NCBI GenBank assembly: GCA_013816405.1
Contig: JACDEL010000004.1
Coordinates: 3,475-67,474 of the forward strand
Direction of reading: 5' to 3'
Source: Chloroflexota bacterium
Lineage (GTDB): Bacteria; Chloroflexota; Limnocylindria; QHBO01
Length of the DNA stretch: 64,000 bases
Below the pieces are notes generated by a model that was not told the DNA's origin, made no database searches, and was given only the letters and a program-made list of their open reading frames with translations. Within the stretch, counting starts at the first letter, position 1; each line of letters begins with the position of its first letter. This document shows positions 35 through 15,740 of the stretch, in pieces. Both the position numbers and the translations under genes were made by a program.

Positions 35-232
35 TTAAGGCAGCCAGATGTTGGCGAGCGCCAGGAGCTGGGCATCGGTCGCATTGCCCGACTCGTCGCG
101 GAAGATGACGTTGTCGTCACGATTGGAGTTGAAGGGGGGGTCGAGGTAGACCAGGTCGACGCTGGCATCGGGCAGGTAGTGACCCAGGATGTCGAGGTTG
201 TCGCAATAGTAGAGGACGTTGGTCTGATTCAT
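35..232 (-). pseudogene. Truncated 5' fragment (65 codons then stop) of an amino-type (N6A/N4C) DNA methyltransferase; repeat copy A
   Basis: ORF MNQTNVLYYCDNLDILGHYLPDASVDLVYLDPPFNSNRDDNVIFRDES... carries the DPPF motif-IV signature but stops after 65 aa. Its ATG overlaps the stop of the upstream gene (ATGA). Homologous segments recur at 975-1101, 5014-5062 and 15655-15740. Confidence 0.55.
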
Positions 233-621
233 CGGCCCGGGCGGCCCTGCCAGAGGACGTTCAGCAGGAGCCAGCGCTCGCCGCAGCGGGCCAGCTGCAG
301 GTAGTCCATGTAGGCCGCCGAGAGGACTCCGACGCTGGCAATGTCGCCGTACGCATCCAGCAGCGAGATCTCGTACGGCCCCGCATCCTCGGCGCCCTCG
401 CCCTGGCGTGTGAATTCGACCATCTGCTCGCGCGACAGGGTCTCGACAATGCAGCTCCCGGTCTGCGGGTCAGCGCTAACGGATCGCTTGACCAGCTCGG
501 GGTGCATGCAGCTGGCCATGCGGTCGCCATCGCCGGCAAGCCACGACTCGATGTAGTCGGTGGCGGACGCAAGGACCAGGTTGCGGTCCTCCGCAGAGAT
601 CTTCGCTTCATCGGTCATCAT
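229..621 (-). CDS. NTF2-like / SnoaL-like (putative lumazine-binding fold) small protein
   Basis: Real start at internal MMTDEAKIS (ATG at 619-621), preceded by GGAGG. 130 aa with the typical ..YIESWLAGDGDRM..HPE.. NTF2-like pattern. 4-bp overlap with the upstream cupin gene. Confidence 0.6.
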   Translation of the reverse strand: MMTDEAKISAEDRNLVLASATDYIESWLAGDGDRMASCMHPELVKRSVSADPQTGSCIVETLSREQMVEFTRQGEGAEDAGPYEISLLDAYGDIASVGVLSAAYMDYLQLARCGERWLLLNVLWQGRPGR

Positions 622-962
622 TCGGTGGCCTCCTCGGGACCGATCACCCAGAACTCGCGGAATGGGGCAGTGATGTGCCAGACCGTGTCGGTGCCGGCGG
701 GGAGAGACGCGGCGTCGCCGGTCTTCAGCTCGAGCGTCCGTCCGCCCGCGACCTCGATCTGCACCGCGCCCTGCAGGATCACGAACGACTCTCGGCGGGG
801 AGGCGTCCACGAAACCGGCTCGGGGTCGACGTCGTAGCGCGTGAAGCCAGCCCAAGTGCCGGGCACTTCACACAGGATGTTCATGAGGCCGCCCACATCC
901 GGATCCGGCTCCCAGGTGTCAGCTGCAAGGCTCGTCACGAACAGCCCAGGCTGTGGCTCCAT
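618..962 (-). CDS. Cupin domain protein
   Basis: 114-aa ORF. The small beta-barrel pattern (..LQGAVQIEVAGGRTLELKTGDAASLPAGTDTVWHI..) is typical of cupin_2/DUF861 proteins. Confidence 0.6.
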   Translation of the reverse strand: MEPQPGLFVTSLAADTWEPDPDVGGLMNILCEVPGTWAGFTRYDVDPEPVSWTPPRRESFVILQGAVQIEVAGGRTLELKTGDAASLPAGTDTVWHITAPFREFWVIGPEEATE

Positions 963-974
963 TGGTTCCTCCTA

Positions 975-1101
975 CTCAATCGCGATTCGAGTTGAAGGGC
1001 GGGTCGAGGTCGACCGGGTCAACGCTGGCATCGGGCAGGTAGCGATGCAGGATGTCGAGGTTGTCGCCGTAGTAGAGGACGTTGGTGGCGAGGTCGGGCA
1101 T
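975..1101 (-). pseudogene. Second partial copy (42 codons) of the methyltransferase 5' segment; repeat copy B
   Basis: Minus-strand translation is MPDLATNVLYYGDNLDILHRYLPDASVDPVDLDPPFNSNRD* and is ~80% nt-identical to 100-232. Its ATG abuts the merB stop at 1102. Confidence 0.5.
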
Positions 1102-1785
1102 CTACAGCGTCCAGTATTGGCCGGTAAGGCCCATCGCAGCGAAGTGAGCGAACAGCTCCTCTTTCGTGGGGCGTGCGTAGCCGAGCGTGAATTTGCCGGC
1201 ATAGATCGGTCCACTGAGGGTGTGGATCTGGTCTGGCGTTAGGGAGGCGGCCTGATCCTCCAGGGTGCAGAGGTCGGACGCGTCGCGATGCTCCGGTGAT
1301 GCGAAGAAGACCATAGTGTTCGAGCAGGTGGTGATGATGTCGCCCCACCATTCGGTGGGGCGCAGGGCAAGGTACACGAGCGATTCGGGGGGATCGACGT
1401 GGGTCGTGTCGCCATCGCGCAGCTCGACCCGGATGGGTTGGGCGCAGTGATGGCAGAACGAATCGACCCGGACGTCAATGCCGCCGAGCATGGCGTGAAA
1501 GGCAATCGCGTCCCACGCGCAGTTCGCAAAGTAAGAGCGGATGTGCGCCGTCACCCGGAACGGCGTTGCGATGGCCGAGAACGGGAACGCCATCAGGATC
1601 CGCGCGGTGCCCTTGACGAGGGCGATGTGGCGGGCCGCTTCCAGGTCGCGAAGGATGTCCGTTGCGGCAGAGCGGGACAGCGAGAACTCGTTCATCACCT
1701 GCTCCGCGACCGGCGGGGCAGCATGCTCGAGGAAGTGTTCGAAGATGAAAAGGCGTACGCGCTTCTGGAGCACCTGGTCAGTCAT
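1102..1785 (-). CDS. merB: Organomercurial lyase (MerB family)
   Basis: 227 aa from MTDQVLQ (ATG 1783-1785, GGGGGGA RBS). ANCAWDAIAFHAMLG matches the MerB catalytic Cys/Asp region (AWCALDTLIFPALIG in E. coli MerB). TTCSNTMVFFASPE matches the C159 region (SFCCHVHFFASV). The longer 389-aa ORF is an upstream artefact. Confidence 0.65.
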   Translation of the reverse strand: MTDQVLQKRVRLFIFEHFLEHAAPPVAEQVMNEFSLSRSAATDILRDLEAARHIALVKGTARILMAFPFSAIATPFRVTAHIRSYFANCAWDAIAFHAMLGGIDVRVDSFCHHCAQPIRVELRDGDTTHVDPPESLVYLALRPTEWWGDIITTCSNTMVFFASPEHRDASDLCTLEDQAASLTPDQIHTLSGPIYAGKFTLGYARPTKEELFAHFAAMGLTGQYWTL

Positions 1786-1849
1786 CGGTCCCCCCGCGTG
1801 CTGTGGCTCAAGTGGGCGCCGGAGCCTAGGGAGAGGGTAGCAGAGGGGG

Positions 1850-1990
1850 CAATGAGAATCATGTTGACCGTGGCACGGCACGCGGCTAGGTTGAGCCGCG
1901 CCGCCAACCTGTTGGAGAGAGGTGACCGATGCGCGTTGGACTGATGGCCGAGAACCCACTCGAGCGCGCCGTCCTCGCCACCGGGCGCGG
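1850..1990 (+). promoter_or_regulatory. Repeated promoter/leader module, copy 1 (TTGACC-17 bp-TAGGTT, GGAGAGAGGTG, start of the MAENPLERAV uORF)
   Basis: ~120 bp is homologous to 15755-15890. Contains a -35/-10-like pair with 17-bp spacing and an SD-like GGAGAGAGG. Sits in the merB / DUF-membrane-gene divergent intergenic region. Confidence 0.45.
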
Positions 1991-2078
1991 GACGGCGGGG
2001 TTGCACCTGGCGACGCCGGTCTGGGCGATCCTGGCAGGGCGGAGGTGGCTCGCCGCTGACGAAAGGACGCGGTCATGA
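1944..2078 (+). CDS. Short upstream ORF (44 aa, MAENPLERAVLATGRG...) translationally coupled (ATGA) to the downstream membrane-protein gene
   Basis: The first 10 codons are conserved in the second module copy (15850-15903). Its stop overlaps the ATG at 2075. Could be a leader peptide or a remnant. Confidence 0.25.
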   Translation: MAENPLERAVLATGRGTAGLHLATPVWAILAGRRWLAADERTRS

Positions 2079-2779
2079 CCCATCCGATCGGCGAACGACG
2101 TCCCTCGGTCGCGGCCGCAGCCGTGCTCTCGATCGTGCTCGGCATCGCGGCATCCATCCTCCTGCCGGCGGCATACGGATTCGACATCCAGGCGATCGCC
2201 CATCCGGGGTCGATCGTCGACAAGGGCCAGGGGGTCGCCGAGCTGCTGCGCTGGGGAGCCCTCCTCGACATGGCCAGCTATCTCCCGATGGCGGTCGTAG
2301 TGGTTTACTTCCACTACCGGTTGCGCGCGCGCAACCCGGAGCTGATCACCCTGTTTACCGCCTCCGGGCTGGCCTATGTGCTCATCGGGAGCATGGCGGG
2401 GGTGCTCCTGGCGACCGTCGGGCCGCCGTTGATCGAAGGGTATGCCACCGCGTCAGCGGGGGCGCAAGATGCCGCTCGGGTCACCCTCGAGGCGCTCGGC
2501 AATGCCGCCCTGATTGGGCTTTGGGGGACCTTGGAGTTGATCTTCATTGGGTTCTGGTTCATCGGCATAGGCTGGCTCATGCGCAGTGACTGGCGCAGAT
2601 TCGCCGTGTTGTCGACGGTCGTGGGCGTCGCCCTTTTGGCCACGAGCCTACGGACCGGCCTCACCGGTCGAACGCTGGTGGAGATCAACGGACCGCTCGA
2701 CCTCGTGGTCACTGCTCCGCTGGGGTTGTTCTTCGTGTGGGAGCTGTGGCTGGCGATGCGCTTATTGCGCGGTGCGTGA
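2075..2779 (+). CDS. Integral membrane protein (multi-TM, DUF4386-like architecture)
   Basis: 234 aa, very hydrophobic with several predicted TM helices. Paralogous in size and organisation to 8372-9025 and 7711-8361. Confidence 0.55.
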   Translation: MTHPIGERRPSVAAAAVLSIVLGIAASILLPAAYGFDIQAIAHPGSIVDKGQGVAELLRWGALLDMASYLPMAVVVVYFHYRLRARNPELITLFTASGLAYVLIGSMAGVLLATVGPPLIEGYATASAGAQDAARVTLEALGNAALIGLWGTLELIFIGFWFIGIGWLMRSDWRRFAVLSTVVGVALLATSLRTGLTGRTLVEINGPLDLVVTAPLGLFFVWELWLAMRLLRGA

Positions 2780-2880
2780 GGTGGGCCGACGCGTTGGAAT
2801 TTCAGGCGTAGGTCGCCCTGGCCGTTGGCGGGTAGCAGCCCGGTTCGATCGGGAACCGATTACGTAAGGAGGGTCAAGCG

Positions 2881-3351
2881 ATGGACTGGGCGGTCGTGGT
2901 CGTGCAATGGCTGCACATGCTGTTCGGCATCTTCTGGTTCGGCGGAGCCCTGTTCGGCAATTTCGTGCTCGGGCCGGTCCTGATCAAGCAGCCGCCCGAC
3001 CGGATGCGCGAGCTTGCCCTCCTGCTCGGGGAGCAGGGCGATCGCGTTATCCTGCCCGTCGCGACGCTGACCATCGTGCTCGGGTTCCTGCGGGGGACGG
3101 TCTTCGGGCCGGTACGGAGCATCGAATTCCTGTTCGGCACGGCATACGGCATCACGTGGCTGGTCGCGCTGCTGACAGCGATCGGGACCCTCGCCTGGGG
3201 TTCTATGACCGTTCGGACGATGCGTCGCGCCCTGCTTGCCGGAGCTGACATCACTGGCTCAACAGGCACGGCACTGCGTAATGCAGGAATCGAGCTCCTG
3301 GGTTTCGCCGTGATCCTCAGCTGCATGGTGCTGATGCGCTTCGGACTGTAG
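2881..3351 (+). CDS. Small integral membrane protein (4 TM, DUF2269-like)
   Basis: 156 aa. Strong RBS AAGGAGGG 7 nt upstream. WLHMLFGIFWFGGALFG N-terminal helix pattern. Confidence 0.55.
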   Translation: MDWAVVVVQWLHMLFGIFWFGGALFGNFVLGPVLIKQPPDRMRELALLLGEQGDRVILPVATLTIVLGFLRGTVFGPVRSIEFLFGTAYGITWLVALLTAIGTLAWGSMTVRTMRRALLAGADITGSTGTALRNAGIELLGFAVILSCMVLMRFGL

Positions 3352-3676
3352 ATGGCGATCGCCGCCCGATCGGCAAGAGCGAGGTCAAGCATCGGCCGCT
3401 CGGATCGTCTCGACCGCGTACAGCGGCCATTTGCCCGGAACTCCCTTCAGCTCGTGGATTCCGCGGTCATCGAGCGTGAAATCTGTGTCGGTGAGCGCAC
3501 GACGCAGTCCCGCCGCAGGCCGGTCGAAGGTGGCGAAGAACCCATCCCCCGCGGGTATTCACCTCTCGACCGCCATGTCGAGCGAGCTCGTGTCGAACAG
3601 CGGCACGGAAGCGCGCAAGCAGCGCCTGCCATCGTGCATCCCCAAGCTCGACGATCGCATTGGTGGGAGCAACTGA

Positions 3677-4484
3677 TCAGTCCTGTGCCGCACGGAGGAA
3701 CTGGCGCATTTCGTGATTGAGCTGGTCGGCCGCCTGGATATTGATCATGTGCCCCACGCCAGGGAGGATGACCAGGCTCGATTCGGGGATCGCCGTGTGA
3801 AGCGCCTCGGCGACATCCAACGAGGCTCGTACATCCCGATCGCCGTACAGCAGGGAGCGTTGGAATGTGGATCTTCGGCAGCACATCGCGCAGGTCGGCT
3901 TCGGCTAGCGACATAGCCAGAGTGCGGAATCCGTCGGGATGGAACTCGGCCATGATGGCGGAGTAACCGTCAACCACCGCCTTCGGTGTCGACTCTGGGA
4001 AGAGGGTGGGGATCATGGCGTTCACGAACTCGGCTGGCGCCTGATCGGCCAGTTCCAGGCTCCTGTGCAGTCGCGGTCCGGCGACCTCCGCGGGGAGGGA
4101 ACCGGTCCAACCGGCGTATGCGGCGGCCAGCACCAGCGTCCGCGGGATGCTGGGATGTCTACGGTACAGCTCAAGGGCCAGCGCACCGCCGAACGAGAGC
4201 CCGGCGATGTGCGGCCGCTCAAGATCGAGAGCGCCGATGACCTCGGCGAGGCAATCAGCGTAGTCAGCCATCCGAAATGATCCCCGTGGATCCTCCGACC
4301 GACCGGCGCCGGGTGCATCCCATGCCACGACGGTGAACTCATCGGACAGCGCCTCGAGCTGGCGACGCCACTCGCGGCTGTCGCCGACGAATCCATGCAG
4401 GAGAACGAGGGGCGGCCCGTTGCCGGCCTGCTCGTACGCGATGCGAAGCCCGCATACCTCTACCTCCTGCACGGCGTCGACTAC
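3677..4484 (-). pseudogene. Alpha/beta hydrolase with +1 frameshift (extra C in a CCC run near 3857) splitting it into two ORFs
   Basis: N-terminal part (..LVLLHGFVGDSREW..IAGLSFGGALALE..) is in frame 3447-4607. C-terminal part (LLYGDRDV..LVILPGVGHM..) is in frame 3677-3886. The two join if one C is removed. Start is probably GTG near 4484. Confidence 0.55.
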
Positions 4485-4870
4485 TGGCCTGCAGGCTCGG
4501 CGCGATACCGGCGCCGCCACTCGGGCGCGGGGAACGGTTGGCCGAAGTAGCCGGTCATGGAGGCCACGAGGCCGTTGCGGAGCTGCAGGATCCAGACATC
4601 CTCCCAAACGGTTCCGTCGGGATATTGCTCGTCGACCTCGACCACGGCGAGATCGCCTGAGCGGAGCACGTTGCGAACCGTGAAAATGGGTGGGTTGGGG
4701 AATGCTTCGTGGAAGGCCTGCTGGCGGTCGCGGCCCTCGAAGCGCTCGCCGGATTGGGGATAGATCTCCACTACGTCATCAGTCACGTAAGTCGCGAAGT
4801 CGGCAAATCGGCGCTCGTTGAAGGCCTGAAACGCCGCGGCGATGCCAGCCGCGAAATCGGGATCGGTCAC
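4481..4870 (-). CDS. NTF2-like / SnoaL-like protein
   Basis: 129 aa. FNERRFADFATYVTDDVVEIYPQSGERFEGRD is typical of SnoaL/DUF4440-type NTF2 folds. Confidence 0.6.
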   Translation of the reverse strand: MTDPDFAAGIAAAFQAFNERRFADFATYVTDDVVEIYPQSGERFEGRDRQQAFHEAFPNPPIFTVRNVLRSGDLAVVEVDEQYPDGTVWEDVWILQLRNGLVASMTGYFGQPFPAPEWRRRYRAEPAGQ

Positions 4871-5013
4871 GGGTTCTCCTCAGCGCTGGACGACCAGGCG
4901 CAGGGTGTGGGCCTCGGAAGGACTCGAGGAACTCACCGATGCGTCCCACCCGTTCCTGAAACCCCGGGTCCGCGCGCTACTCATGTAATTCTGCTGACCT
5001 TCTTCGACCGGTC

Positions 5014-5062
5014 GCGGAAGATCACGTTGTCGTCGCGATTGGAGTTGAAGGGTGGGTGGAGG
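5014..5062 (-). repeat. Third partial copy (~50 bp, DPPF-motif core only) of the methyltransferase 5' segment; repeat copy D
   Basis: Minus strand reads ..HPPFNSNRDDNVIFRD.. and matches 88-130 of copy A. No start codon. Confidence 0.4.
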
Positions 5063-5150
5063 AGCGTAGCACGGGATTACAGGCGTGGGCGCACGTGACC
5101 ACCCGCGAGGGGAGCGGTACGGGTAAGGTCGTCATGACGATCGGGTACCG

Positions 5151-6566
5151 ATGAAGGAAGGCCAAACGTTCATGGCGGAAGGGCTCGCGGGACTCACACG
5201 CGAACACCTTAGTCGCCTGCGCGAGACGTTCCGCGGCGAGGTCAACACCCCCGGCGACAAGGGGTACGACGACGCGCGGCGCGTATGGAACGCGAAGTTC
5301 GACCGTCGACCGGCGATCCTCATCCGGCCGACCGGCGCCGGGGAGGTCGCGACCGCGATCCGCTTCGGGCGGGAGCACGGGCTCGAGATCGCCATCCGCG
5401 GTGGCGCACACAGCAACGTGGGGCATTCGACGACCGACGGCGGGCTGGTGATCGACCTGTCACGGTTCCGCGGCGTGACGGTCGACCCTGAGCGGCGGAT
5501 CGCCCTTGCTCGGGGTGGCGCATTGCTGGGCGAGCTCGATGTCGCAGCGCAGGCGCACGGCCTCGTCTGCCCGGTCGGCGTCATCGGTCATACCGGCGTC
5601 GGCGGGCTGACGCTGGGCGGCGGGATGGGCCGGCTTCAGCGGCGCTTCGGCCTGACCATCGACAACCTTCTCGCTGTCGAGCTCGTGACCGCGGACGGCC
5701 GCACCGTGCGCGCCAGCGAATCGGAGGAGCCCGAACTCTTCTGGGGGATGCGGGGTGCGGGCGCGAATTTCGGCGTGGTCACCAGCTTCGAGTTCGAGCT
5801 CCGCGAATTCGGCCCGCTGCTCCACCGTGGGGTGCGGATCTACCCCGCGTCCGCTCTCCAGGAGGTCTGGGCGATGGTGCGGGACTTCGCTGCGGTCGCC
5901 CCCGACGAGCTCACGGTCATCGTCAGCATCGGCCTTGCCCTGCCGGTGGAGGACTACCCCGAGTCGGTCGCCGGACAGCCGATCGTGATCGTCTCCTACA
6001 ACCACTGCGGCGACGCGGCCAGCGTCGAACGGGATGTCGCTCCGCTTCGTGCAGGACCCGAGCCGGTCTCGAGCTCAGACAGCAGCCAGGAGTACCTCGA
6101 GGTCCAGACTGCGAATGACCTGGCCATGGGATGGGGGAGCAGGTCCTACATCAAGGGCGGCTATGCGAACGACTTCCGCCCGGAGGCCCTCGATGCGCTC
6201 CTCGAGCACGCGGCCACGGGGTCTGCCGAGAGCGGGTTCGGGATCACCCTGCAGGGCGGCGCGATGGGGCGGGTGCCGGACGATGCCATGGCCTTCACCG
6301 GGCGCGACGCCCGGTTCGAGATGAGCGCCGCCTCCGATTGGGAGGATCCCGCTCTCGACGAGACGGAGCGCGACTGGGTCCGTCAGGCAATGGCGATCGT
6401 CGAGCCGGACGCCGTGGCGGGCCGCTATCTCAACGAGATCTCCGAGTCAGGGCCGGAGGAGACCCGGGCCATCTACGGGGATGGGAAGCTCGCCAGGCTC
6501 ACGGGGCTCAAGCGGGCCTGGGATCCCGACAACGTCTTCCGCCTGAACCACAACATCGCGCCGTAG
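5151..6566 (+). CDS. FAD-binding oxidoreductase (PCMH-type FAD domain + BBE/berberine-bridge C-terminal domain)
   Basis: 471 aa. GGAHSNVGHSTTDGGLVIDLS..GVGGLTLGGGMGRLQRRFGL.. plus C-terminal ..AWDPDNVFRLNHNIAP are hallmark BBE-like oxidase motifs. Confidence 0.8.
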   Translation: MKEGQTFMAEGLAGLTREHLSRLRETFRGEVNTPGDKGYDDARRVWNAKFDRRPAILIRPTGAGEVATAIRFGREHGLEIAIRGGAHSNVGHSTTDGGLVIDLSRFRGVTVDPERRIALARGGALLGELDVAAQAHGLVCPVGVIGHTGVGGLTLGGGMGRLQRRFGLTIDNLLAVELVTADGRTVRASESEEPELFWGMRGAGANFGVVTSFEFELREFGPLLHRGVRIYPASALQEVWAMVRDFAAVAPDELTVIVSIGLALPVEDYPESVAGQPIVIVSYNHCGDAASVERDVAPLRAGPEPVSSSDSSQEYLEVQTANDLAMGWGSRSYIKGGYANDFRPEALDALLEHAATGSAESGFGITLQGGAMGRVPDDAMAFTGRDARFEMSAASDWEDPALDETERDWVRQAMAIVEPDAVAGRYLNEISESGPEETRAIYGDGKLARLTGLKRAWDPDNVFRLNHNIAP

Positions 6567-6922
6567 GGTCGGGGCGCCGAACGGCCGGGTCGACATCGTC
6601 TACTACGACCGGACCCGCGACCCGATTGACGTGCTGAACTACGTCACCTACTCGCGCCTCGATCCGACGAGTGGGCTGGGAGTTACCGCCATGAGTGACG
6701 GTGCCTGGAGCCCCGCCTTCAATGGCAACGTCGACGGCGGCCAGCCGACGACGACGTGCACGTCGTTCATCGGCGACTACATCGGGCTGAGCTCCGACGA
6801 CACGCACGTCTCCCTGGGCTGGACCGGGAATGGGCCGAGCGTCCACCACGACGAGTTCGGCGATCCGACGGACTGCGACGTGAACCAGGACGTGCTGACG
6901 GTGGCAATCAGGCCCTAGCTTC

Positions 6923-7714
6923 TCAGTAGCCGGACCATCGCGGGCGCGCCTCGGCTGAAGGCTCGTCGGGATCAGGCAGCTGGTTCCTGACCATGGCGAC
7001 GAACGGACCCATTGCGCTGGCGAGCAGTGTCGCGTCTTCGGCAGTTGGCTGGCCGTCGTAAGCGCGGTGAGCAGCGTGGATCGCTTCGTGCCAGCGGTCA
7101 GGGAGGTGCTCGAGCGCCCACGCGCCCGCGGAGCGTTTGGAGATCACCACGTTGCCGCTCTCGACGGCATGCAGGATGCGGCTGCCATTCAGGATCGAAT
7201 AGGTGGCCTCGTACGGATCGTCGTCACCCTCGACGACATGCCGCTCCAGATGTTCGAGCTCCCGGCGGAGGTCGACTTCGAGCTCAGCCCAGGTGGGTGG
7301 TGGCACGATCTCGGCTGGCTCTCGCCCGTACAGCGGCACGTAGCGGCCGGCGAGCCAATGCGCCCGATGAATTGCCCAGGAGGTGTCACGCCGTTCAGCT
7401 TGGAAGGCGTGAGGCGGGCTCTCGGGTCGACGAGCATCGGCGGCCAGGACGTACCACGCATCCCACTCGACGCCCTGCTCACGGGCGATCAGGGCGTGGG
7501 CGTCTTCAATTCTCTGGGAAGTGCGTTGGTCGGGTGGCCGATCAACCACCGCGTAGGTATCAAGGTCTCCGGAGAGCGGTCGGTCGTGAGACGTGGTTCC
7601 GCCGTGCCCCCACAACGCGACCAGATTGTTGGCAAGGATCACCTGCAATTCGTCTCGGAGGCGAATCCAAGGGATCCGCGCTCTGTCCGGGATCTCGTCA
7701 AGAGGGACGCTCAC
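6923..7714 (-). CDS. Nucleotidyltransferase-domain protein of the AadA/ANT(3'')-ANT(9) type (NT domain + DUF4111)
   Basis: 263 aa from GTG 7712-7714, which overlaps the upstream stop (GTGA). LVALWGHGGTTSHDRPLSGDLDTYAVV is the NTase G-S...D.D motif. The C-terminal ..ILNGSRILHAVESG.. aligns with the AadA DUF4111 region. The 307-aa ORF version has a non-homologous N-terminal extension. Confidence 0.6.
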   Translation of the reverse strand: MSVPLDEIPDRARIPWIRLRDELQVILANNLVALWGHGGTTSHDRPLSGDLDTYAVVDRPPDQRTSQRIEDAHALIAREQGVEWDAWYVLAADARRPESPPHAFQAERRDTSWAIHRAHWLAGRYVPLYGREPAEIVPPPTWAELEVDLRRELEHLERHVVEGDDDPYEATYSILNGSRILHAVESGNVVISKRSAGAWALEHLPDRWHEAIHAAHRAYDGQPTAEDATLLASAMGPFVAMVRNQLPDPDEPSAEARPRWSGY

Positions 7715-8361
7715 CGGCCGTCCTTGGGGCTTGTGGGGAAGAGGAAAAGCCACGCCCCGACGACCAAGCCCCACAGGACCACCACGTAGAACGGCGCAGG
7801 CAGCCACTGGTTCGGTGACCATCCGGTGGCGACGAGGAATGCCCACGATGAGATGGCGGCCAGCCCCGTGAGCCCGGTGAAGGCGCGAACCCAGGTCGGG
7901 GCCGCAGTTCCGCCCTTCGCGAGGGTGATCAGCGAGATGCCGAGCAGCATGCCGCCGATCCCGAAGAAGACGACCATCCCGCCGCTGATCAGCGCGTAGC
8001 TGATCGCGGGATCAATGGCCGGGCCGCCGGCAAGCACCGAGGTCGGCACCGCGAGATAGAGGCCCCAACCGATCATGAACGAGCCGGCCGCGGCCAGGCT
8101 GGTGCCCCAGACGACTCTGCCTTGGCGGCCTGCACCGAGCCAGGTCTCCGACAGGTGGGCCATCAATACGATCAGTCCGATGGTCGAGATGACGACCAGG
8201 TAAACGGACACGATGAGCGCGGTTCGGCTCTGCGCCACGAACCTGGAGATCTCGGTGGCGGAGTAGTGCCCACCTTTTGGGCCGAAGAGCGTGAACCCGA
8301 CGATCAGGCACACGGCGAACAGGACCCCGCCTGCGCCAGCGCGCTGCCTGTCTCGGTTCAC
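7711..8361 (-). CDS. Integral membrane protein (paralog of 8372-9025)
   Basis: Multi-TM ORF. Start is uncertain: GTG 8361 or ATG 8424. Its stop overlaps the start of the nucleotidyltransferase gene. Confidence 0.45.
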   Translation of the reverse strand: MNRDRQRAGAGGVLFAVCLIVGFTLFGPKGGHYSATEISRFVAQSRTALIVSVYLVVISTIGLIVLMAHLSETWLGAGRQGRVVWGTSLAAAGSFMIGWGLYLAVPTSVLAGGPAIDPAISYALISGGMVVFFGIGGMLLGISLITLAKGGTAAPTWVRAFTGLTGLAAISSWAFLVATGWSPNQWLPAPFYVVVLWGLVVGAWLFLFPTSPKDGR

Positions 8362-8371
8362 CAGTCGCCGT

Positions 8372-9025
8372 TCAAGTGGGAGGGGCCGTCCCGTCCATGT
8401 CCCCAGGGTCCCGCCATAGGGCATACCCCCAGGCCAGGAGGCCAGCGCCAACCAGGACACCCAGAGATGTCTGGCCGATCTGCTGCAGGCCCGGCGCGAG
8501 GAAAAGGACCGCCGGTACCGCAACCACCGCGACCGGCACCAGCAAGATCAGGACCCAGGAGCCGATCGACGGAAGAATGCCCGCGCGCAGCGTGGCGATT
8601 GCCAACAGCAGCAGGCCGATGAACCCGGCCAGGATCAGGCCCCCCACGAACTTGAGGGACAAAGCCGTGAAAAAGGGTCCATTCAGTACGAGCAGCTGCG
8701 GGGCACCCTGCGCGATGACCGGCTGCAGGACGCCGCCCCCGATCATCAGCGTGCCAGCGGTCAAAGCCGCGCCCGCCACCGCCATGACGAATCCGACGAA
8801 GCCAAGCCGTCCAATGCGCTCTCCCTGGCGCGCGTAAAGGCCGATTAGACCGAACAGAATCAGCAGCCATGCGAAGGCGCCCAGCCAGTGCGCGAGACCC
8901 CACACCGGCTCGAGGACGTACTTCGCCGTCTCGCCGGGCGGATGGAGGATGAGTTCCACCGCCAGGCCAATCCCGCCGAGCATCATGGAGAGCCCGCTCC
9001 AGCGGATCAGCCTTCGGGTGGACAT
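8372..9025 (-). CDS. Integral membrane protein (DUF4386-like)
   Basis: 217 aa from MSTRRLIRWSGL (ATG 9023-9025), highly hydrophobic. The longer 294-aa ORF upstream extension is not supported. Confidence 0.5.
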   Translation of the reverse strand: MSTRRLIRWSGLSMMLGGIGLAVELILHPPGETAKYVLEPVWGLAHWLGAFAWLLILFGLIGLYARQGERIGRLGFVGFVMAVAGAALTAGTLMIGGGVLQPVIAQGAPQLLVLNGPFFTALSLKFVGGLILAGFIGLLLLAIATLRAGILPSIGSWVLILLVPVAVVAVPAVLFLAPGLQQIGQTSLGVLVGAGLLAWGYALWRDPGDMDGTAPPT

Positions 9026-9069
9026 GTCCGGAAGCGTACGCCTCGGCTGCACTGCCCGATAACGCGGGA

Positions 9070-10015
9070 GAAGCAGGCAGCGCCCCCGGCCCATTCGGGG
9101 TGTACTCGCGGACAGGTCCGTCGATCGGCTTGAAGGTGAGCCGCGTGGGCCGTTCTTGGTGCCACTCAAGGCTGCCCTTCGTGCCGGACACGCGGATGTG
9201 GAGACCGTTCTCCACCCCAGCCGCCGTCTGCGTGACCCAGAAGCTCCCGCGCGCACCGTTGTCGAAGCGCAGCATGGCGGCGCCGTAATCGTCGACAGGC
9301 CGTTCCGGGATCACGTGGCCGATCTCGGCGGCGACCTCCGCGACTTCGAGGCGACTGACGAACCGCACCAGGTTGTGCGCGTGCGTTCCGATGTCGCCCA
9401 TCACCAGGGACGGTCCGCCTCGCACGGGGTTGTAGCGCCACGGCAACCCGCCGGCTGGGTCCGGGTCGGACTCATCGGCCTTGTTTCCCTGCACGTATTC
9501 GACCTGGACCAGCCTGATCTCGCCGACCTGCCCATCCTCGACCAGCGCGCGAGCCTGGCGCACCATGGGGTAGCCCGTATAGATGTGCGTGAGGCAGAAG
9601 ACCAGCCCCGTGGCATCGACCTTGCGGACGATGTCCAGGGCCTCGTCAAGCGTGTTCGTCATCGGCTTGTCGCAGACGACGTCGAAGCCCCGATCCAGAG
9701 CCGCCAGGGCATACCGATGGTGGCTGTCGTTCGGGGTCATGATCGCGACGACCTCGGCACCGTCCTCGCGGTCGCTCTCGGTATCGAGCTTCACATTGGC
9801 ATCGGAATAGGCGCGTGAGGGATCGATCCCCATGCCGATGGCAGCCTTCTCGGATCGCTCGGGATCCGACGAGACCACCCCTCCCACGAGCTGATAGCGA
9901 CCGTCGAGCCGTGCGGCCGTCGGTGCATCGCACCGATGAAGCTGCCCGGGCCACCGCCGATGACCGCCAGCCGAAGCGGGCGTCCAAGCATCTCAATGAT
10001 CGGCTCAGCGTCCAC
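9070..10015 (-). pseudogene. Gfo/Idh/MocA family oxidoreductase, frameshifted near 9895 (-1 in a G/C run); C-terminus unclear
   Basis: Rossmann N-terminus RLAVIGGGPGSFIGAMHR is in ORF 9791-10015. The rest (..VVAIMTPNDSHHRYALAALDRGFDVVCDKPM..GEIRLVQVEY..) is in ORF 8358-9887. That ORF then runs on stop-free across the next gene, which is a GC artefact. Confidence 0.5.
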
Positions 10016-10064
10016 GGAGGGCTAGCCTAGCATCGAGGTCCCGGAGCGAGGTCTTTCAGGACAC

Positions 10065-10346
10065 TCACGAACGGATGACCAGCTCGAGCGTGACGGTGTC
10101 GCCCAGCGCGAGTCCTTCGGCAGTGCGGACGACGTCCTTGATGGGCACGACGTAGCCGCCGTCCTTGGGAAACAGCGAGGTTTCCCAAACGCTTCGGCCG
10201 ATCCGGGCTCTGACCGGGATCATGCCCCAGCCATAGCTCACCATCGGCGACACGGCGCGCAGCTCGAGACCAACCGCCTTCGGCACCGTGATGAAGTGAA
10301 ACGGCGCAGGGCCCCTCCAGTACCACAGCTCGCCGATGAACTCCAT
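10065..10346 (-). CDS. DUF1905 family protein
   Basis: MEFIGELWYW..FHFITVPKAV..SLFPKDGGYVVPIKDVVRTAEGLALGDTVTLEL matches the DUF1905 pattern. Start at the second Met. Confidence 0.6.
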   Translation of the reverse strand: MEFIGELWYWRGPAPFHFITVPKAVGLELRAVSPMVSYGWGMIPVRARIGRSVWETSLFPKDGGYVVPIKDVVRTAEGLALGDTVTLELVIRS

Positions 10347-10487
10347 GGGCACGATCCCCGGATCCATCACCAGAAACTACTCGACCAGAAGCCGAATGAT
10401 GTGCGGCGGCTCAATCCGCGTACTAGCTAGGTGCAGGGCTGCCGTGAAGTGCGCTCCTGCCTCATGGCCACCTACTAGGAGTACACA

Positions 10488-11726
10488 ATGCGTTACTGGA
10501 AGCCGGCAGCCACTGCGCTCGCCGTCGTACTTATGCTCGCCGCGTGCTCGGCCGCGCCCGGCACCAGCACCTCGCCCAGCTCCGAACCGAGCATGGCGGG
10601 GAACAGCATGTCGCCGAGCCACAGTCCGGGCACAGGCGAAATCGAGTCAGCCGCGGCCACACTCCGCACTGACCTGAACTATCTTCTGGGCGAGCACCTC
10701 ATCCTCGCGGCCAAGGCGACTGGTGCGGCCCTTGGTGGTCGTGCAGATCAGTTCGCCGCCTACGCCGCGCTCTTGAACACGAATGGCACCGATCTGGGTG
10801 CCGCGATTGGCAGCATCTATGGCCAGGCCGCCCAGGACGAATGGAATCGGATCTGGAGCGCCCACAACGGGTTCTTCGTCGACTACACCAACGGGGTGGC
10901 GACCAAGGACCAGGCGGCCATGGACCTCGCCGTCAAGAACCTGACCACGGTCTATGTCCCGCAGTTCGCGGAGTTCCTGGCCGGTGCCACCGATCTGCCC
11001 ACTGAGGCGATCACGAACCTGGTCACGCAGCACGTCCTTCAGACCAAGGCGGTGGTGGATGCCCAGGCCGCAGGCGAGTGGGACGCCGCCTACGCGGCCA
11101 TCCGCGAGGCATACGCCCACATGCAGATGATCGGCGACGCGCTTGCCCCGGCAATCGCATCGAAGAATGGGATCGATGGTGACGCTGGCACCGCAGGTGT
11201 CGACTTCCGCGTCGCCCTGAACCAGTTCCTCCAGGAGCACCTGTTCCTGGCCTCCTTCGCGACCGATGCCGCACTTGCAGGAAGAGCCGATGAGTTTGCG
11301 GCAGCTGGGGCTGTGCTGAACACGAACGGCACCGATCTGGGTGCCGCCATTGGCAGCATCTATGGCCAGGCCGCCCAGGACGAATGGAATCGGATCTGGA
11401 GCGCCCACAACGGGTTCTTCGTCGACTACACCAACGGGGTGGCGACCAAGGACCAGGCGGCCATGGACCTCGCCGTCAAGAACCTGACCACGGTCTATGT
11501 CCCGCAGTTCGCGGAGTTCCTGGCCGGTGCCACCGATCTGCCGCAGAACGTTCTGGAGAAGTTGATCTCCGAGCACGTGCTGACCACCAAGGCGATCGTC
11601 GACGCGCAGGGAGCGGGCGACGTGATGGGGGCCGCCACGGCGGATCGCGAGGCTGCGCAGCACATGCGCATGATCGGCGACCCGCTTGCAGTAGCCATCG
11701 TCGGGAAGGTCCCCGACAAGTTCTAG
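10488..11726 (+). CDS. Secreted lipoprotein with two near-identical ~180-aa helical repeats (function unknown)
   Basis: Signal peptide plus lipobox (LAACSAAPG). Residues ~95-270 and ~275-410 are repeated. At nucleotide level 10770-11000 and 11310-11540 are nearly identical. AGGAG RBS. Confidence 0.7.
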   Translation: MRYWKPAATALAVVLMLAACSAAPGTSTSPSSEPSMAGNSMSPSHSPGTGEIESAAATLRTDLNYLLGEHLILAAKATGAALGGRADQFAAYAALLNTNGTDLGAAIGSIYGQAAQDEWNRIWSAHNGFFVDYTNGVATKDQAAMDLAVKNLTTVYVPQFAEFLAGATDLPTEAITNLVTQHVLQTKAVVDAQAAGEWDAAYAAIREAYAHMQMIGDALAPAIASKNGIDGDAGTAGVDFRVALNQFLQEHLFLASFATDAALAGRADEFAAAGAVLNTNGTDLGAAIGSIYGQAAQDEWNRIWSAHNGFFVDYTNGVATKDQAAMDLAVKNLTTVYVPQFAEFLAGATDLPQNVLEKLISEHVLTTKAIVDAQGAGDVMGAATADREAAQHMRMIGDPLAVAIVGKVPDKF

Positions 11727-11787
11727 CCCGTCCATCCGGGGAGCGGTCCGGTCATCCGGGCCGCTCCTCTCCTTTTGATAGCACGAG

Positions 11788-12195: not shown

Positions 12196-12284
12196 CTGCG
12201 ACCTGGCCGACCATCGGCTCCGGCAGGGCGAGGCCATGCCCATTCACACGGCCGTCATGCGCTGGTGGTACCGTCGCGGCCGCC

Positions 12285-12989
12285 ATGGCCACCGTGCTCG
12301 TCGTCGATGATGACCCCAGTATCCGTGACCTCCTGCGCCTGTACGTGACCCGTGACGGTCACCGCGTGGTGTTCGCCACCGACGGCGCGCAGGCACTGGT
12401 GGCTGCCCACCAACACGTGCCCGACCTGGTTCTGCTCGACGTGATGCTGCCGGGAATCGACGGCCTGGAGGTCTGCCGGCAGCTCCGCGAGAATAGTGAT
12501 GTCCCAATCATGCTGTTGACCGCACGCAGCGGCGACTCGGACAAGGTGGTTGGCCTGGACCTGGGCGCCGACGATTACGTCGTGAAGCCGTTCAGCCCAC
12601 GCGAGCTGATGGCGCGCATCCGTGCCCAGCTGCGCCGGCGCACGAGTGCCGCCCTCGATGACCCGGTGCTGACCTCGATCGGGCTGATGGTCGACCCAAG
12701 CGCAATGGAGGTGCAGGTCAATGGCAGGCCGGTCGAGATCACCTCGACCGAATTTCGGATCCTGCATGCCCTCATGCGGCGAGCCGGCCGCGTCTTCACG
12801 CGAGACGAGCTGATCAGCGCGTCTTATGTCGACGACCCCGGCATCCTCGATCGGACGATCGATGTTCACGTCGGGCGACTGCGGCGCAAGCTGGGCGACA
12901 GCTCGGCGAGCCCGCGCTACGTGGCCACCGTTCGGGGCGTCGGCTACAAGTTCGTGTCCGCGGTCGAAGCGCGGGCGAGTGAGGGCTGA
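12285..12989 (+). CDS. OmpR/PhoB-family response regulator
   Basis: Receiver domain (VLVVDDDPSIRDLL..DLVLLDVMLPGIDG) plus winged-helix C-terminus (..RVFTRDELI..VDVHVGRLRRKL..). Confidence 0.85.
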   Translation: MATVLVVDDDPSIRDLLRLYVTRDGHRVVFATDGAQALVAAHQHVPDLVLLDVMLPGIDGLEVCRQLRENSDVPIMLLTARSGDSDKVVGLDLGADDYVVKPFSPRELMARIRAQLRRRTSAALDDPVLTSIGLMVDPSAMEVQVNGRPVEITSTEFRILHALMRRAGRVFTRDELISASYVDDPGILDRTIDVHVGRLRRKLGDSSASPRYVATVRGVGYKFVSAVEARASEG

Positions 12990-12992
12990 CCG

Positions 12993-14126
12993 ATGTCAAC
13001 GCTGAGTGCGCGGCTGATGGGCCTGTTCCTGCTCCTGTCCTTGCTCGTCGCCGGGGTGATCGTTCTCGCGGTCGTCCAGTTCAGCGCCGAGCAGGTGATG
13101 CACCTCCTGATGCAGGGCGTCGGCACGCCGGAGCAGGCGCGGGCCATGTTCGATCAATACGTGGTGCGCGTCATGCTGATCGGAGCGGCCGCGGGCGTGG
13201 TGCTCGGGAGCTTGGCCGCCTGGTGGCTGGTGCGACGCCTGATGCGACCGCTCCAACTGCTGACCGAGGCGTCGCAGTCGATCGCCGTTGGTGACCTGGC
13301 GGCGCGCGTGCCGGAACCGGCAGATTCGGAGCTGCGCCGGCTCGCCCAGTCGTTCAACCGCATGGCTGGCGCACTGCAACGCACCGAGCAGCTGCGGCGG
13401 GCCCTGGTCGAAGACGTGGCCCATGAGCTGCGGACGCCGCTGACCAGTCTGCGCGGCTACACCGAGGCGCTTGCCGACGGGGTCATCGCGCCGACGCCGG
13501 AGATGCTGCACACGGTGCACGAGGAGATCGAGCGACTGACGCGACTGGTCGAGGCACTCGACCAGTTGGCGCGCGGTGAGCGGGACGAGCGCTCACCCGA
13601 GCAGGGCGACGTCGATCTCGCCTTGATTGTGCGCCGCACGATCAAGCTGGCATCGCCGGAGCTCACTCGGCGTCAGATTGAGATCGAGGTCGTGGAGCCC
13701 CCTGCCCTGCCCCCTGTGCAGGGCGACGCGGACGCCATCGGCCAGGTTGTGGCGAACCTGGTCCAGAACGCCGAGCGCTACACCGATGATGGGGGCCGCA
13801 TGACGGTCCGCCTCGCCGCCGGTGCCGAATCGCTGCGCTGCGCCGTCGAGAACACAGGTGACGGGATCCCACCCGATGAGCTTGAGCTCATCTGGGAGCG
13901 CCTCCACCGCGTCGATCGCTCACGAGCCCGCGCCAGCGGCGGCGCGGGCATCGGCCTCGCCATCGTCCGCCAGATCGTTGACGCCCACGGAGGACAGGTG
14001 GGCGCCTCCTCGGCCGACGGGCGGACCGAGATCTGGTTCAGGCTTCCGATCGCGAATCGCGCGAGTAAGGCACCGGTTCAGCAAGCCGTCACAAGCGCGT
14101 CATCACCTCGACACATGCGCGGCTGA
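12993..14126 (+). CDS. Sensor histidine kinase (TM, HAMP, HisKA, HATPase_c)
   Basis: N-terminal TM helices, H-box AHELRTPLTSLRGYTE, and G-boxes ..DGGRMTV.. and GGAGIGLAIVRQIV. Confidence 0.85.
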   Translation: MSTLSARLMGLFLLLSLLVAGVIVLAVVQFSAEQVMHLLMQGVGTPEQARAMFDQYVVRVMLIGAAAGVVLGSLAAWWLVRRLMRPLQLLTEASQSIAVGDLAARVPEPADSELRRLAQSFNRMAGALQRTEQLRRALVEDVAHELRTPLTSLRGYTEALADGVIAPTPEMLHTVHEEIERLTRLVEALDQLARGERDERSPEQGDVDLALIVRRTIKLASPELTRRQIEIEVVEPPALPPVQGDADAIGQVVANLVQNAERYTDDGGRMTVRLAAGAESLRCAVENTGDGIPPDELELIWERLHRVDRSRARASGGAGIGLAIVRQIVDAHGGQVGASSADGRTEIWFRLPIANRASKAPVQQAVTSASSPRHMRG

Positions 14127-14176
14127 CCCTGACGGAGACGGCCGGAGAAGCCGGTCCGCGAACCCGAGGATGAACC

Positions 14177-14566
14177 ATGCGACGAGTCTTGCTGATGCTG
14201 TCGGTCATCGCGGCGATGAGCCTGGTGCTGGCCGCACCGGTCGGCGCCAAATCATTCGGCACGATCTACGCTGAGGGTGACGCCTACCGCACCTTCGGCA
14301 CACCTGCACACGTCGAAGCTGGCACAGGCACCGATCCAATCATCGCCTTCAGCAACTTCGACCAGGGTGGCGTGGCCAAGTACGCGCCCGGACAGGGCTC
14401 GCACGGCGGGCGCTGGATGGTCTGGGTGGCGACCTGGGTGGTTCCGGGAGACGCCTACCTGCTCACCGACTATGACGACGTGATCGCGCTGGTCGATGCT
14501 CGCGAGATCACTCTGCAACGAATGCCCGGCGCGGACTTCCGCTGCCCGATTCTGCCGAACGCTTAG
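14177..14566 (+). CDS. Secreted hypothetical protein (signal peptide)
   Basis: 129 aa. N-terminal MRRVLLMLSVIAAMSLVLAAPVGA. GAGGATGAACC RBS region. Lies downstream of the two-component pair. Confidence 0.5.
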   Translation: MRRVLLMLSVIAAMSLVLAAPVGAKSFGTIYAEGDAYRTFGTPAHVEAGTGTDPIIAFSNFDQGGVAKYAPGQGSHGGRWMVWVATWVVPGDAYLLTDYDDVIALVDAREITLQRMPGADFRCPILPNA

Positions 14567-14584
14567 ACATCCGAGATCGGGCGC

Positions 14585-14615
14585 CGCCGGTCCGCAGGGG
14601 CCGGCGGTGTCGTTT
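14585..14615 (+). terminator. Candidate intrinsic terminator (CCGCCGG-10 nt loop-CCGGCGG then U-rich TGTCGTTTA)
   Basis: Inverted repeat 20 bp after the stop of 14177-14566, followed by a T-rich tract. Confidence 0.3.
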
Positions 14616-14880
14616 ACCCGACCCGGCCGTCGGTTCGATATCGGACACGTCGGGGTGGGCGCCGGAGCCTCCGGGCAGAGCACCGGCGGGCACACAAGCG
14701 GGTCGCCCACGGCAGGTCAGGCTGAAGCCATTCTCGCGGTGCAGCAATCTGTCGCTGCTTGACCACCCACCCCGGCTCGCGCCGAGGCCCCCGCGCCCTC
14801 TCGCTGCGGGCGACCGGCGCTCTCCACCGCGGTGCCACCCCGGACGTTTCCCGGCATGCAGCTCATCAACGAGGAGGATT

Positions 14881-15040
14881 CATGACCGAGCGCGAACCAA
14901 TCCACAGCGCGGCGGCTCCGTCCACCGCCAGGCCCGCGGCGCGAAAGCTGGTGGATCGCCGCCGCGCGATGTCCCTGATGGTCAGCGGGATGGCAGCTCT
15001 GTCGGCCATCGTGCCTCTCATGGTCCTCAAGCCCGGCTGA
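14881..15040 (+). CDS. Small hypothetical protein (53 aa)
   Basis: Good RBS (GAGGAGG then ATG at 14881). MTEREPIHS.. with a hydrophobic C-terminal segment. The longer ORF 14759-15040 lacks RBS support. Confidence 0.3.
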
Positions 15041-15201
15041 CCTGACCTAGGAAATCCATTGACCCGCTGGCCCCCGGCGAGCATGATGCCGGCGTGAAGG
15101 TCGACCGGCAGAGCCGGACGGTTTGCGATGCGGCGTTGCGTGCGCTGAATCGGCGGAAGATTGGCCCGGTGTACTAACTCGGCACGCGAACGGGGTGAGA
15201 C

Positions 15202-15642
15202 ATGATCCATGCCGATGCCAACACAACCATTCGGCGACCCATCGCCGATGTCTTTAACTATGTGACCGATCCGACCAACGAGCCCGCCTGGCACACCGAC
15301 GCGGCCGAGGCGCGGCCGCTCATTACCGGCCCGATCGGGGTGGGAAGCCGGATCGCCTATGTCTTTCCGTTCATGGGTCGGCGCTCGACGTCGATCGGCG
15401 AGGTCGTCGCGTTCGAGCCGCCGCACCTCGAAGCGATCCAGTTCGATAGCGGGCCATTTGGCCTCAAGCCGAGGATCACCTACCGCTTCGAGGATCTCGG
15501 CGGGTCTGTCCGCTTCACCCGCCAGGCTGAGGCAGAAACGCGGGGCCTCATCCGCGTGATCGCGCCAATCATGCAGCGGCTACTGGTCCGCCGGAGTGCC
15601 TTGTTTGTCGAGAACCTTCGACGGCAGCTCGAGGGAGCCTGA
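15202..15642 (+). CDS. SRPBCC-superfamily (polyketide cyclase/START-like) protein
   Basis: 146 aa. ..IRRPIADVFNYVTDPTNEPAWH.. is the typical SRPBCC N-terminal pattern. Confidence 0.6.
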   Translation: MIHADANTTIRRPIADVFNYVTDPTNEPAWHTDAAEARPLITGPIGVGSRIAYVFPFMGRRSTSIGEVVAFEPPHLEAIQFDSGPFGLKPRITYRFEDLGGSVRFTRQAEAETRGLIRVIAPIMQRLLVRRSALFVENLRRQLEGA

Positions 15643-15654
15643 CAACCGACGATG

Positions 15655-15740
15655 CCAGCAGCTGGGCATCGGTGGCATTGCTCGACTCGTCGCGGAAGAT
15701 GACGTTGCAGTCGCGGTTGGAGTTGAACGGCGGGTCGCAG
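15655..15740 (-). repeat. Fourth partial copy (~85 bp) of the methyltransferase 5' segment; repeat copy E
   Basis: Minus strand reads ..CDPPFNSNRDCNVIFRDESSNATDAQLL.. and is homologous to 55-135 of copy A. Overlaps the 3' end of the SRPBCC gene on the other strand. Confidence 0.45.

Follow-up and report, generated by a model that had tools for sequence, protein, structure and literature searches.

A methylase-derived module spaces accessory gene cassettes in an array at the end of a Chloroflexota contig region

What leaves partial copies of a single gene at the borders between unrelated neighbours? The question is raised by one end of a 64,000-nt stretch of a Chloroflexota genome (assembly GCA_013816405.1, contig JACDEL010000004.1, positions 3,475 to 67,474 of the forward strand; hereafter the window), where four partial copies of the 5′ end of a DNA methyltransferase (methylase) gene lie on the minus strand. 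We label them c1 (43–232), c2 (975–1104), c3 (4998–5062) and c4 (15652–15740). The initial annotation saw them as border marks of accessory gene blocks, explained them by tandem site-specific integrations into one attB, and remarked on a likeness to a cassette array. That likeness proved to be the better guide: the copies stand at cassette borders in a true array of a type that recurs in other genomes, and positions 1 to ~17,000 of the window are the eroded end of such a repeat-spaced array. The single-attB core did not stand.

A blastn search of the whole window with its positions 1–260 returned exactly three further copies and nothing else above noise: 980–1086 (89.7% identity over 107 nt), 15654–15737 (89.3% over 84 nt) and 5005–5062 (89.7% over 58 nt). 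A module profile built from 55 copies of other genomes found the same four, at 43–227 (E = 9e-56), 978–1104 (1e-37), 15652–15737 (2e-25) and 4998–5062 (6e-12), and no other significant copy in the 64-kb window, the best remaining match having an E value of 0.034. All four are on one strand in the first 16 kb, at odds with a dispersed repeat unrelated to cassette borders. The shared core pattern described in the initial annotation matched four times in the window and not once in 100 shuffles. An independent assembly (locus L082, NCBI GCA_020064125.1) is 100% identical to window 1–10932 (10.9 kb); in it the described fusions of stop and start codons are also seen, the c1 open reading frame (ORF) overlapping the stop of an NTF2-like gene as ATGA and the c2 ATG directly abutting the TAG of a MerB-like gene. 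The marginal match at E 0.034 lies in the opposite orientation at 6577–6652 (+), just past the stop of a BBE oxidase gene (VDIVYYD against VDLVYLD). It could be a module remnant, a sign that the BBE cassette and its module were inverted as one; the score is too weak, and we dropped it from the count.

The translations agree with the assignment to a methylase N-terminus. Copies c1 and c2 read MNQTNVLYYCDNLDILGHYLPDASVDLVYLDPPFNSNRDDNVIFRDESGNATDAQLLALANIWLP and MPDLATNVLYYGDNLDILHRYLPDASVDPVDLDPPFNSNRD, each followed by a stop codon, and c3 and c4 read LHPPFNSNRDDNVIFRD and DPPFNSNRDCNVIFRDESSNATDAQLLA. The catalytic motif IV, DPPF, is intact in c1, c2 and c4 and is HPPF in c3. These stubs align with residues 4–63 of the 533-aa methylase of another array (L011; PF01555 score 1.5e-44), although the 65-aa stub alone gave no Pfam match. 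All four window copies end at residue 65 or before, with S-adenosylmethionine (SAM)-binding motif I and the remaining fold missing, and a tblastn search of the window with the full-length methylase found nothing past residue 110. Lacking the SAM-binding half, and often with a mutated DPPF, the stub is unable to make a methylase.

Such stubs are widespread. Searching public data with the c1 peptide yielded 1,406 stub-like proteins, the best 120 of which are all 61–114 aa long; therefore the stub itself, and not the full methylase, is the common entity. In total, 112 close copies were counted in 39 loci. Among the 80 best of 506 genomic loci, the hosts were mostly metagenome-assembled genomes (MAGs) of Chloroflexota (Chloroflexia, Limnocylindria, Tepidiformaceae), with a minority from Gemmatimonadales, Vicinamibacterales, Nitrospira and Solirubrobacterales. 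The densest arrays hold up to ~13 same-strand copies per 13–17 kb (~13 in L086, ~12 in L087, 8 in L027, 6 in L012, 5 in L025). The 8 same-strand copies of L001 span 11 kb, each with 1–3 genes after it, and the last opens the gene of an intact 533-aa N6_N4_Mtase, which has a C-terminal Mrr-like/NA-iREase1 domain. Between the modules lie ORF-sized accessory genes (cupin, NTF2/SnoaL, MerB-like, oxidoreductases, toxin-antitoxin pairs, defence-like genes) packed stop-to-start. These cassettes are single ORFs of 0.4–2 kb without integrases, about a quarter of them in the opposite orientation, and each has its own stub, much as the initial annotation had supposed for its blocks. Array sites are conserved on the chromosome, beside nrdJ in five genomes and beside PNPOx-LacI in three.

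Of the 1.6-kb methylase gene, at most the first 330 nt recur in arrays; there were no middle pieces and only one 3′ piece. An intact methylase gene stands at the array end in one of ~20 arrays (L011), and none lies within 3.5 kb past c1. In a related MAG a further array follows the same flank as that of c1, so an intact gene further beyond that flank is possible. Intact single genes of the methylase family are found elsewhere on plasmids of rhizobia and actinobacteria and in phages of Streptomyces and Mycobacterium, at no more than 59% identity.

Two features of these loci were noted in passing. A ribonucleotide reductase gene is the downstream flank of five arrays (L002 16127–19517 (−); L009, L010, L012 and L037), and the L002 gene encodes an intein that has a LAGLIDADG domain. 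Toxin-antitoxin pairs (HepT/MNT, PIN with antitoxin, MazE) lie inside arrays, mostly on the opposite strand (L027 8256–8961, L037 9256–9892, L014 19554–20169, L086 6532–7244, L087 974–1599), like the stabilising toxin-antitoxin cassettes of large chromosomal integrons.

Aligned across genomes, the copies define a module of ~200 nt: an array-specific leader followed by codons 4 to ~63–72 of a beta-class N6/N4 DNA methyltransferase gene. At the DNA level the leader is (stop) ACCG ATG ACC/CCY GAS CTC GCC ACC AAC, nearly every copy starts there, and the canonical module is the leader plus ~190–215 nt. The 5′ leader edge is kept in 90 of 112 copies, while 23 extend further upstream into a conserved motif of 75–130 nt (...GCTTGCCCCCGCTGCTACCCTCTCCCCAGGCTCCGGCGCCCACCTGAGCC...GGGGGACCGATG). 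Coverage of the 112 copies rises from 64 to 93 at the leader, declines slowly to 74 by reference position q364, and drops from 68 to 28 over q379–q424. The 3′ ends of 40 copies fall within q380–424 (codons ~60–75, downstream of DPPF), against 19 across q214–364; at the protein level, stub ends peak at residues 58, 64 and 71–74. The upstream motif matched neither a sigma-70 promoter nor a terminator, and as a structured RNA it scored only z −0.85.

Native full-length methylase genes (~550 aa, at least 40 single-copy loci) start (G/A)TG AAG/CAG ACC AAC, with neither leader nor upstream motif. On this sequence evidence the stubs are a separate lineage and not pieces of a resident gene. A search for full-length genes with the array leader found only partial proteins of up to 336 aa, mostly on short contigs. 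The sole case seen of an array-type leader heading a long methylase gene, probably a broken one, is L087 16616–17737, where the module runs to at least q600, into a 264-aa ORF; it may be near the source of the module.

Two further observations concern the stub itself. In a module sub-lineage common to several genomes, TGGGG is replaced by GCATAG, creating an in-frame stop after TWH(A) (L020 2747–2950, L027 8045–8251, L002 7941–8157; proteins P0049, P0074, P0103, P0114 and P0117); modules therefore propagate as already-dead copies. At q354–405 (for example L012 10145–10196; the c1 equivalent is at about window 43–95) there is a 50-nt imperfect palindrome, CCGATGCCCAG...CTGGGGTCCATCGG, which spans the zone where most copies end and contains a segment also found as isolated pieces. 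It is a possible breakage or recognition site.

Cassettes change places. They were compared by blastn against the other loci, tblastx having been dropped after a flood of spurious high-GC matches. The MerB-like gene lies behind modules cut at q381, q390 and q302 in L012, L025 and L040, and is followed either by a leader (L012, with a junction CTGTAG/ATG identical to that in the window) or by a short module piece. The NTF2, cupin, 237-aa, GFO/IDH, DUF4386 and HTH_65 methyltransferase genes of the window likewise have other neighbours in other arrays, and a cassette X and an HTH-TPR gene are swapped between L010 and L012. Relatives have or lack the blocks one by one, and have them in different company and order.

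Modules are 95–99.5% identical where the nrdJ genes of the same genomes are only 76–87% identical, and one cassette is 93.5% identical where nrdJ is at 85.9%. Substitutions in the stubs are relaxed, with differences by codon position of 1632/1242/2809, and several copies have a mutated catalytic motif. Since the substitution pattern is relaxed and catalytic residues are often changed, protein-level selection is insufficient, and conservation of the module requires either recent exchange between lineages or a constraint on the DNA itself.

The layout also bears on expression. As read directly from the leader, a restart codon follows stops in both of the other frames (TAG/TGA ahead of ACCG; TGA inside ATGA). 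For 39 of 67 copies, no more than 10 nt separate the leader start from the stop of a long upstream ORF on the same strand, with an ATGA overlap in 17 of the 39, and the stub ORF stops at −30 to +10 nt of the next ORF start in 24 of 61, counts that chance open frames at the 68% G+C of the window inflate. The stub ORF appears to be coupled translationally to its neighbours.

No enzyme that would move the cassettes was found with them. Pfam scans of the window, and the gene tables of six neighbourhoods (L001, L002, L082, L083, L086 and L087), contained no integrase, transposase or reverse transcriptase, in keeping with the initial annotation, which had seen no recombinase in the window. Nor was there a recombinase among the 25 families listed (every family with at least three members and some with two) from 112 ORFs of at least 170 aa around 17 arrays; recurrent neighbours considered for that role proved to be HTH+TPR, STAND/LuxR and HepT/MNT proteins, a Schlafen-type helicase and an ion channel. 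In the window, a pattern for attC sites (R″-N35-125-R′, both strands) had 0 matches against 3.0 expected in shuffles, there was no tRNA gene, and Rfam assigned no family in positions 1–17 kb, giving only a chance small-RNA match at E 0.3. An inverted repeat between leader and 3′ zone, suspected by eye, was unsupported by a repeat search. Single-strand DNA folding gave a local hairpin over q354–405, with modest z scores of −2.3 and −0.7.

We favour, at roughly even odds (about 0.5 for the statement as a whole), a reading that gives the modules two roles: they would supply portable homology, through which RecA-type recombination exchanges cassettes, and they would link neighbouring genes by translational coupling. 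A crossover between any pair of modules, within a genome or after horizontal transfer, could excise, insert, duplicate or swap whatever genes lie between them; this would account for the same cassettes in differing order and for modules 95–99% alike across diverged genomes. No dedicated recombinase would be needed in cis. The leader stops, restart ATG and short stub ORF would couple translation from one cassette to the next. Copies c2, c3 and c4 and a leader-only unit of the window would derive from deletions at short module repeats (CCGATG, ACCTCG), of a kind seen directly in other arrays. We prefer homologous recombination because the modules are long and similar enough for it, no enzyme is linked to the arrays, and the breakpoints form a continuum with several clusters.

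Several observations weigh against this preference. Homology alone explains poorly why the junction with the module falls on one and the same 5′ nucleotide in so many unrelated genes, or why the 3′ ends collect at a few positions where the partners are many and varied; at q415, for instance, six different sequences follow GAGGCGAC. Isolated pieces of 20–50 nt, all with TTCGAGGACACCTGG, lie just past cargo stops in at least seven places and resemble a specific site, and direct repeats of 19–30 nt of the same segment flank the MerB-like gene in L025 and a TIR gene in L011. Circular or empty-site intermediates were not observed, the recombinase survey covered 10 kb either side of ~20 arrays, and the coupling is read from spacing alone.

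Most of these points would suit an analogue of the integron, in which a site-specific recombinase or nuclease encoded away from the array inserts and excises ORF-sized cassettes at a module site formed by the leader edge or by the TTCGAGGACACCTGG segment within the 50-nt imperfect palindrome, the rest of the stub being a passenger. Such an enzyme would account for the sharp common 5′ edge in 90 of 112 copies, for 3′ ends concentrated in a 45-nt zone, for breakpoints shared by many partners, and for the site-sized pieces after cargo stops together with the short direct repeats. The hairpin at q354–405, the ORF-tight and toxin-antitoxin cassettes and the small-enzyme content, as in chromosomal integrons, point the same way. 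We nevertheless hold it to be unlikely, if a serious competitor: some 20 neighbourhoods hold no recombinase, breakpoints fall in several clusters and a continuum and not at one position, the structure signal is weak, and about a quarter of the cassettes are turned around.

The stubs might instead be passive debris without a role, left at a chromosomal hotspot where copies of a mobile methylase gene arrived or were duplicated again and again and were repeatedly broken up by unrelated insertions and deletions. The relaxed substitutions, stop codons and frameshifts of the stubs, their frequent internal deletions, the mobility of the methylase family on plasmids and actinophages, and the conserved chromosomal spots (nrdJ, PNPOx-LacI) are all as expected of debris. 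The stubs, however, are far better conserved than nrdJ, when debris would be expected to degrade more quickly; nothing but the first 330 nt or less of the gene recurs, 90 copies across phyla share one edge, and the stop-start packing is systematic. We regard this explanation as improbable.

Accretion at one attB, the origin proposed in the initial annotation, fares worse and is very improbable. It holds that successive integrative elements entered a single attB in the 5′ end of a resident methylase gene, leaving att copies that share the DPPF core. Within the window this looks plausible, as c1–c4 overlap in the DPPF segment, c2 ends just past it and c3 and c4 begin at it, and one array (L011) does end in an intact methylase gene. 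Across the 112 copies, however, the DPPF segment is present in 82 and absent in 30 and shows no concentration of ends; what stays constant is the leader edge on the 5′ side, and 3′ ends gather at q380–424. The supposed tandem elements are single ORFs of 0.4–2 kb without integrases, most arrays lack an intact gene, and the stub leader is absent from native genes, so stubs are not pieces of a resident target. Copies c3 and c4, which might be taken for the core with a right arm, are internal-deletion derivatives with upstream module context still in place, and the c4 junction occurs in NCBI record P0096 with an intact 5′ part.

Least credible of all is an RNA-mediated origin, by reverse transcription with a template switch from the 5′ end of a cargo mRNA onto the 3′ ends of short methylase transcripts, which predicts a 5′ edge fixed at the transcript start (one is seen, with two alternative upstream extents) and variable 3′ ends (they fall in discrete clusters) and would suit cargo left borders within ~15 nt of start codons, but which is opposed by cargo right borders at the stop codon instead of at transcript ends, by the existence of opposite-strand cassettes and by the lack of any reverse transcriptase seen near an array.

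The array in the window can be followed part by part (Table 1). Copy c1 is its terminal copy and is orthologous to copy 10004 of L014, the terminal copy of a related MAG; the flank past it (PNPOx, LacI, metallophosphoesterase, SnoaL, M24 peptidase) keeps synteny with L014 through 3.5 kb, at 78.5%. The cupin and NTF2 cassettes, as read directly, retain no more than a module start context between them, where other arrays have full modules (after cupin in L003; before NTF2 in L004, L014, L086 and L087). Copy c3 is preceded at 5063–5085 by a piece, cccgtgctacgctcct, that on direct reading resembles the upstream motif of the module. Copy c4 has lost the leader and first 80 nt through an internal deletion, because upstream module context, as in L020, still precedes it; its 3′ junction (LLA/SSV...) and downstream sequence occur in P0096 with a full 5′ part, which shows that its ancestor had one too. 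The fifth, leader-only unit retains no methylase codon at all and matches the motif in L034, L027, L020, L007, L009, L002 and L014 at 82–90% by blastn. Of two coupled cassettes, the 237-aa membrane-like gene (7711–8424) lies between modules in L027, L034 and L070.

Table 1. Modules, module remnants and cassettes of the array zone, in window coordinates (q, reference position).
Feature	Position	Strand	Description
c1	35–232	−	Nearly canonical module: own start (MNQ), methylase codons 4 to ~63, stop; q201–390, 87%
NTF2-like cassette (Lumazine_bd_2)	229–621	−	Recurs in L004, L014, L086, L087
Module start context	~609–617	−	TGACCGATG; sole residue between cupin and NTF2 cassettes
Cupin cassette (Cupin_3)	618–962	−	Recurs in L003, L087
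c2	975–1104	−	Array-type leader (ATG CCC GAC CTC GCC), cut after NSNRD at q316
MerB-domain cassette	1102–1785	−	Recurs in L012, L025, L040 (77–81% nt) behind modules cut at differing points
Fifth unit, leader-only	1776–1852	−	Conserved 75–130-nt upstream motif and leader GACCG ATG ACT GAC, joined at ATG to MerB-like ORF
Second partial O-methyltransferase 5′ end and intergenic context	1853–1984	−	~20 O-methyltransferase codons, on + strand; blastn to L020 3942–4157, 79.6% over 216 nt
DUF4386 cassette	2075–2779	+	Opposite orientation; recurs in L026
SnoaL-like cassette	4481–4870	−	
c3	4998–5062	−	Internal-deletion remnant, q287–337
FAD/BBE oxidase cassette	5151–6566	+	Opposite orientation; start in ACCGATG context; weak similarity to L037 3155–3721
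Two coupled cassettes	6923–8424	−	AadA_C-domain gene 6923–7714; 237-aa membrane-like gene 7711–8424
GFO/IDH/MocA-type oxidoreductase cassette	9063–10015	−	Apparently disrupted; recurs in L034, L027, L083 (86–89%)
c4	15652–15740	−	Internal-deletion remnant, q290–373
Remnant of context preceding a module	15753–15875	−	O-methyltransferase 5′ end (divergent) and intergenic region; adjoins c4 upstream; blastn to L020 3957–4079, 84.6%
HTH_65 + SAM-methyltransferase gene	15888–16997	−	Upstream edge of array zone; recurs inside L087 array (89%)

Some further traits of the zone deserve mention. The alpha/beta-hydrolase ORF at 3447–4607 (−) and the GFO/IDH ORF at 8358–9996 (−) have partial Pfam matches and are split or ignored in the L082 gene calls; they are probably decaying cassettes. 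The start context of the module leader, ACCGATG, is over-represented where genes of the array zone begin: the merB, BBE, histidine kinase and methyltransferase genes have it (at 1785(−), 5151(+), 12993(+) and 16979(−)), against about one gene in the other 47 kb. Module start contexts may have been fused to cargo genes upon deletion of stubs. As a recombination core the heptamer was rejected: it is common in the window (46 sites) and occurs inside the stub, and we retain it as a start context only. Finally, a 159-nt repeat of 98.7% identity (10774–10932 and 11317–11475, 543 nt apart) lies inside a 412-aa ORF at 10488–11726 (+), whose function is unassigned (a faint OrfB_IS605 match only, E 0.006). 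The L082 assembly breaks exactly at this repeat.

Literature searches found no published description of such arrays, and each of the known systems that they call to mind departs from them. Repetitive extragenic palindromes and miniature inverted-repeat transposable elements are dispersed over the genome in many copies with terminal inverted repeats; the window has only four significant copies, on one strand of its first 16 kb, and the module has no supported inverted repeat. Among Neisseria minimal mobile elements, cassettes are exchanged via flanking homology without a dedicated mobility gene, and in the 'insertion with long target duplication' of restriction-modification genes, inserts are flanked by long direct duplications of the target. 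Those systems are confined to one site, flanked by two different conserved genes, or to one duplication; here a 200-nt module is repeated up to 13 times and across phyla. As with SXT/R391 at the 5′ end of prfC and the accretion of integrative and conjugative elements and cis-mobilizable elements in streptococci, partial gene-end copies delimit the insertions and each unit supplies a replacement end, but here each unit is one gene with no integrase, the copies lack a fixed identity core, and the intact target is usually absent.

Orphan toxin-tip and immunity arrays of Rhs and contact-dependent growth inhibition loci are nearer. There too a fragment of a conserved gene sits beside each variable unit, with one edge fixed and the other variable; the gain and displacement of units are attributed to homologous recombination via the fragment, and the intact gene may sit at one end. 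The present arrays are a mirror image, with the 5′ end of a gene in place of a 3′ core and the array upstream of the intact gene. Their units are unrelated free-standing genes, with no in-frame toxin tips or immunity genes, the stub ends in a stop, and the recurring gene is a DNA methylase.

Closest in layout and content are sedentary integron arrays and clusters of attC sites lacking integrases (CALINs), even though the two defining traits, attC sites and IntI, were not found. Both kinds of array are long, mostly co-oriented and made of ORF-sized, tightly packed accessory genes, among them small enzymes (cupin, glyoxalase, SnoaL-like) and toxin-antitoxin cassettes; both have a repeat of 60–300 nt after each gene and the same cassettes in different order between genomes. 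They differ in the repeat, which here is a direct repeat derived from coding sequence (methylase leader and N-terminus) and not the imperfect palindrome of attC, and which has an ORF apparently coupled translationally to its neighbours. No IntI or other recombinase is near the arrays here; in CALINs IntI is absent by definition.

To our knowledge, integrons are the only well-understood system that stockpiles single-gene cassettes. In Chloroflexota that are abundant in soil and freshwater, the arrays look like a cassette store of wide distribution, with a different repeat and probably a different mechanism. They would add a new reservoir from which accessory and defence genes are exchanged rapidly, and the leader and stub offer a sequence handle for recovering cassettes from metagenomes by PCR or read mining. 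They also provide a natural case of a gene fragment becoming a module for recombination and expression. For annotation, thousands of ORFs of 60–115 aa, many of them publicly named 'site-specific DNA-methyltransferase', appear to be stubs. A bolder and tentative proposal, which we think unlikely, is that the arrays represent a second, independent invention of the integron principle, with a remote enzyme acting at a defined site in a methylase-derived 200-nt module that doubles as an expression adaptor through its stop and restart. If it were true, the chromosomes of Chloroflexota and of some neighbouring phyla would house libraries of ORF-sized cassettes that are captured, excised and reshuffled as in integrons, by way of a different repeat.

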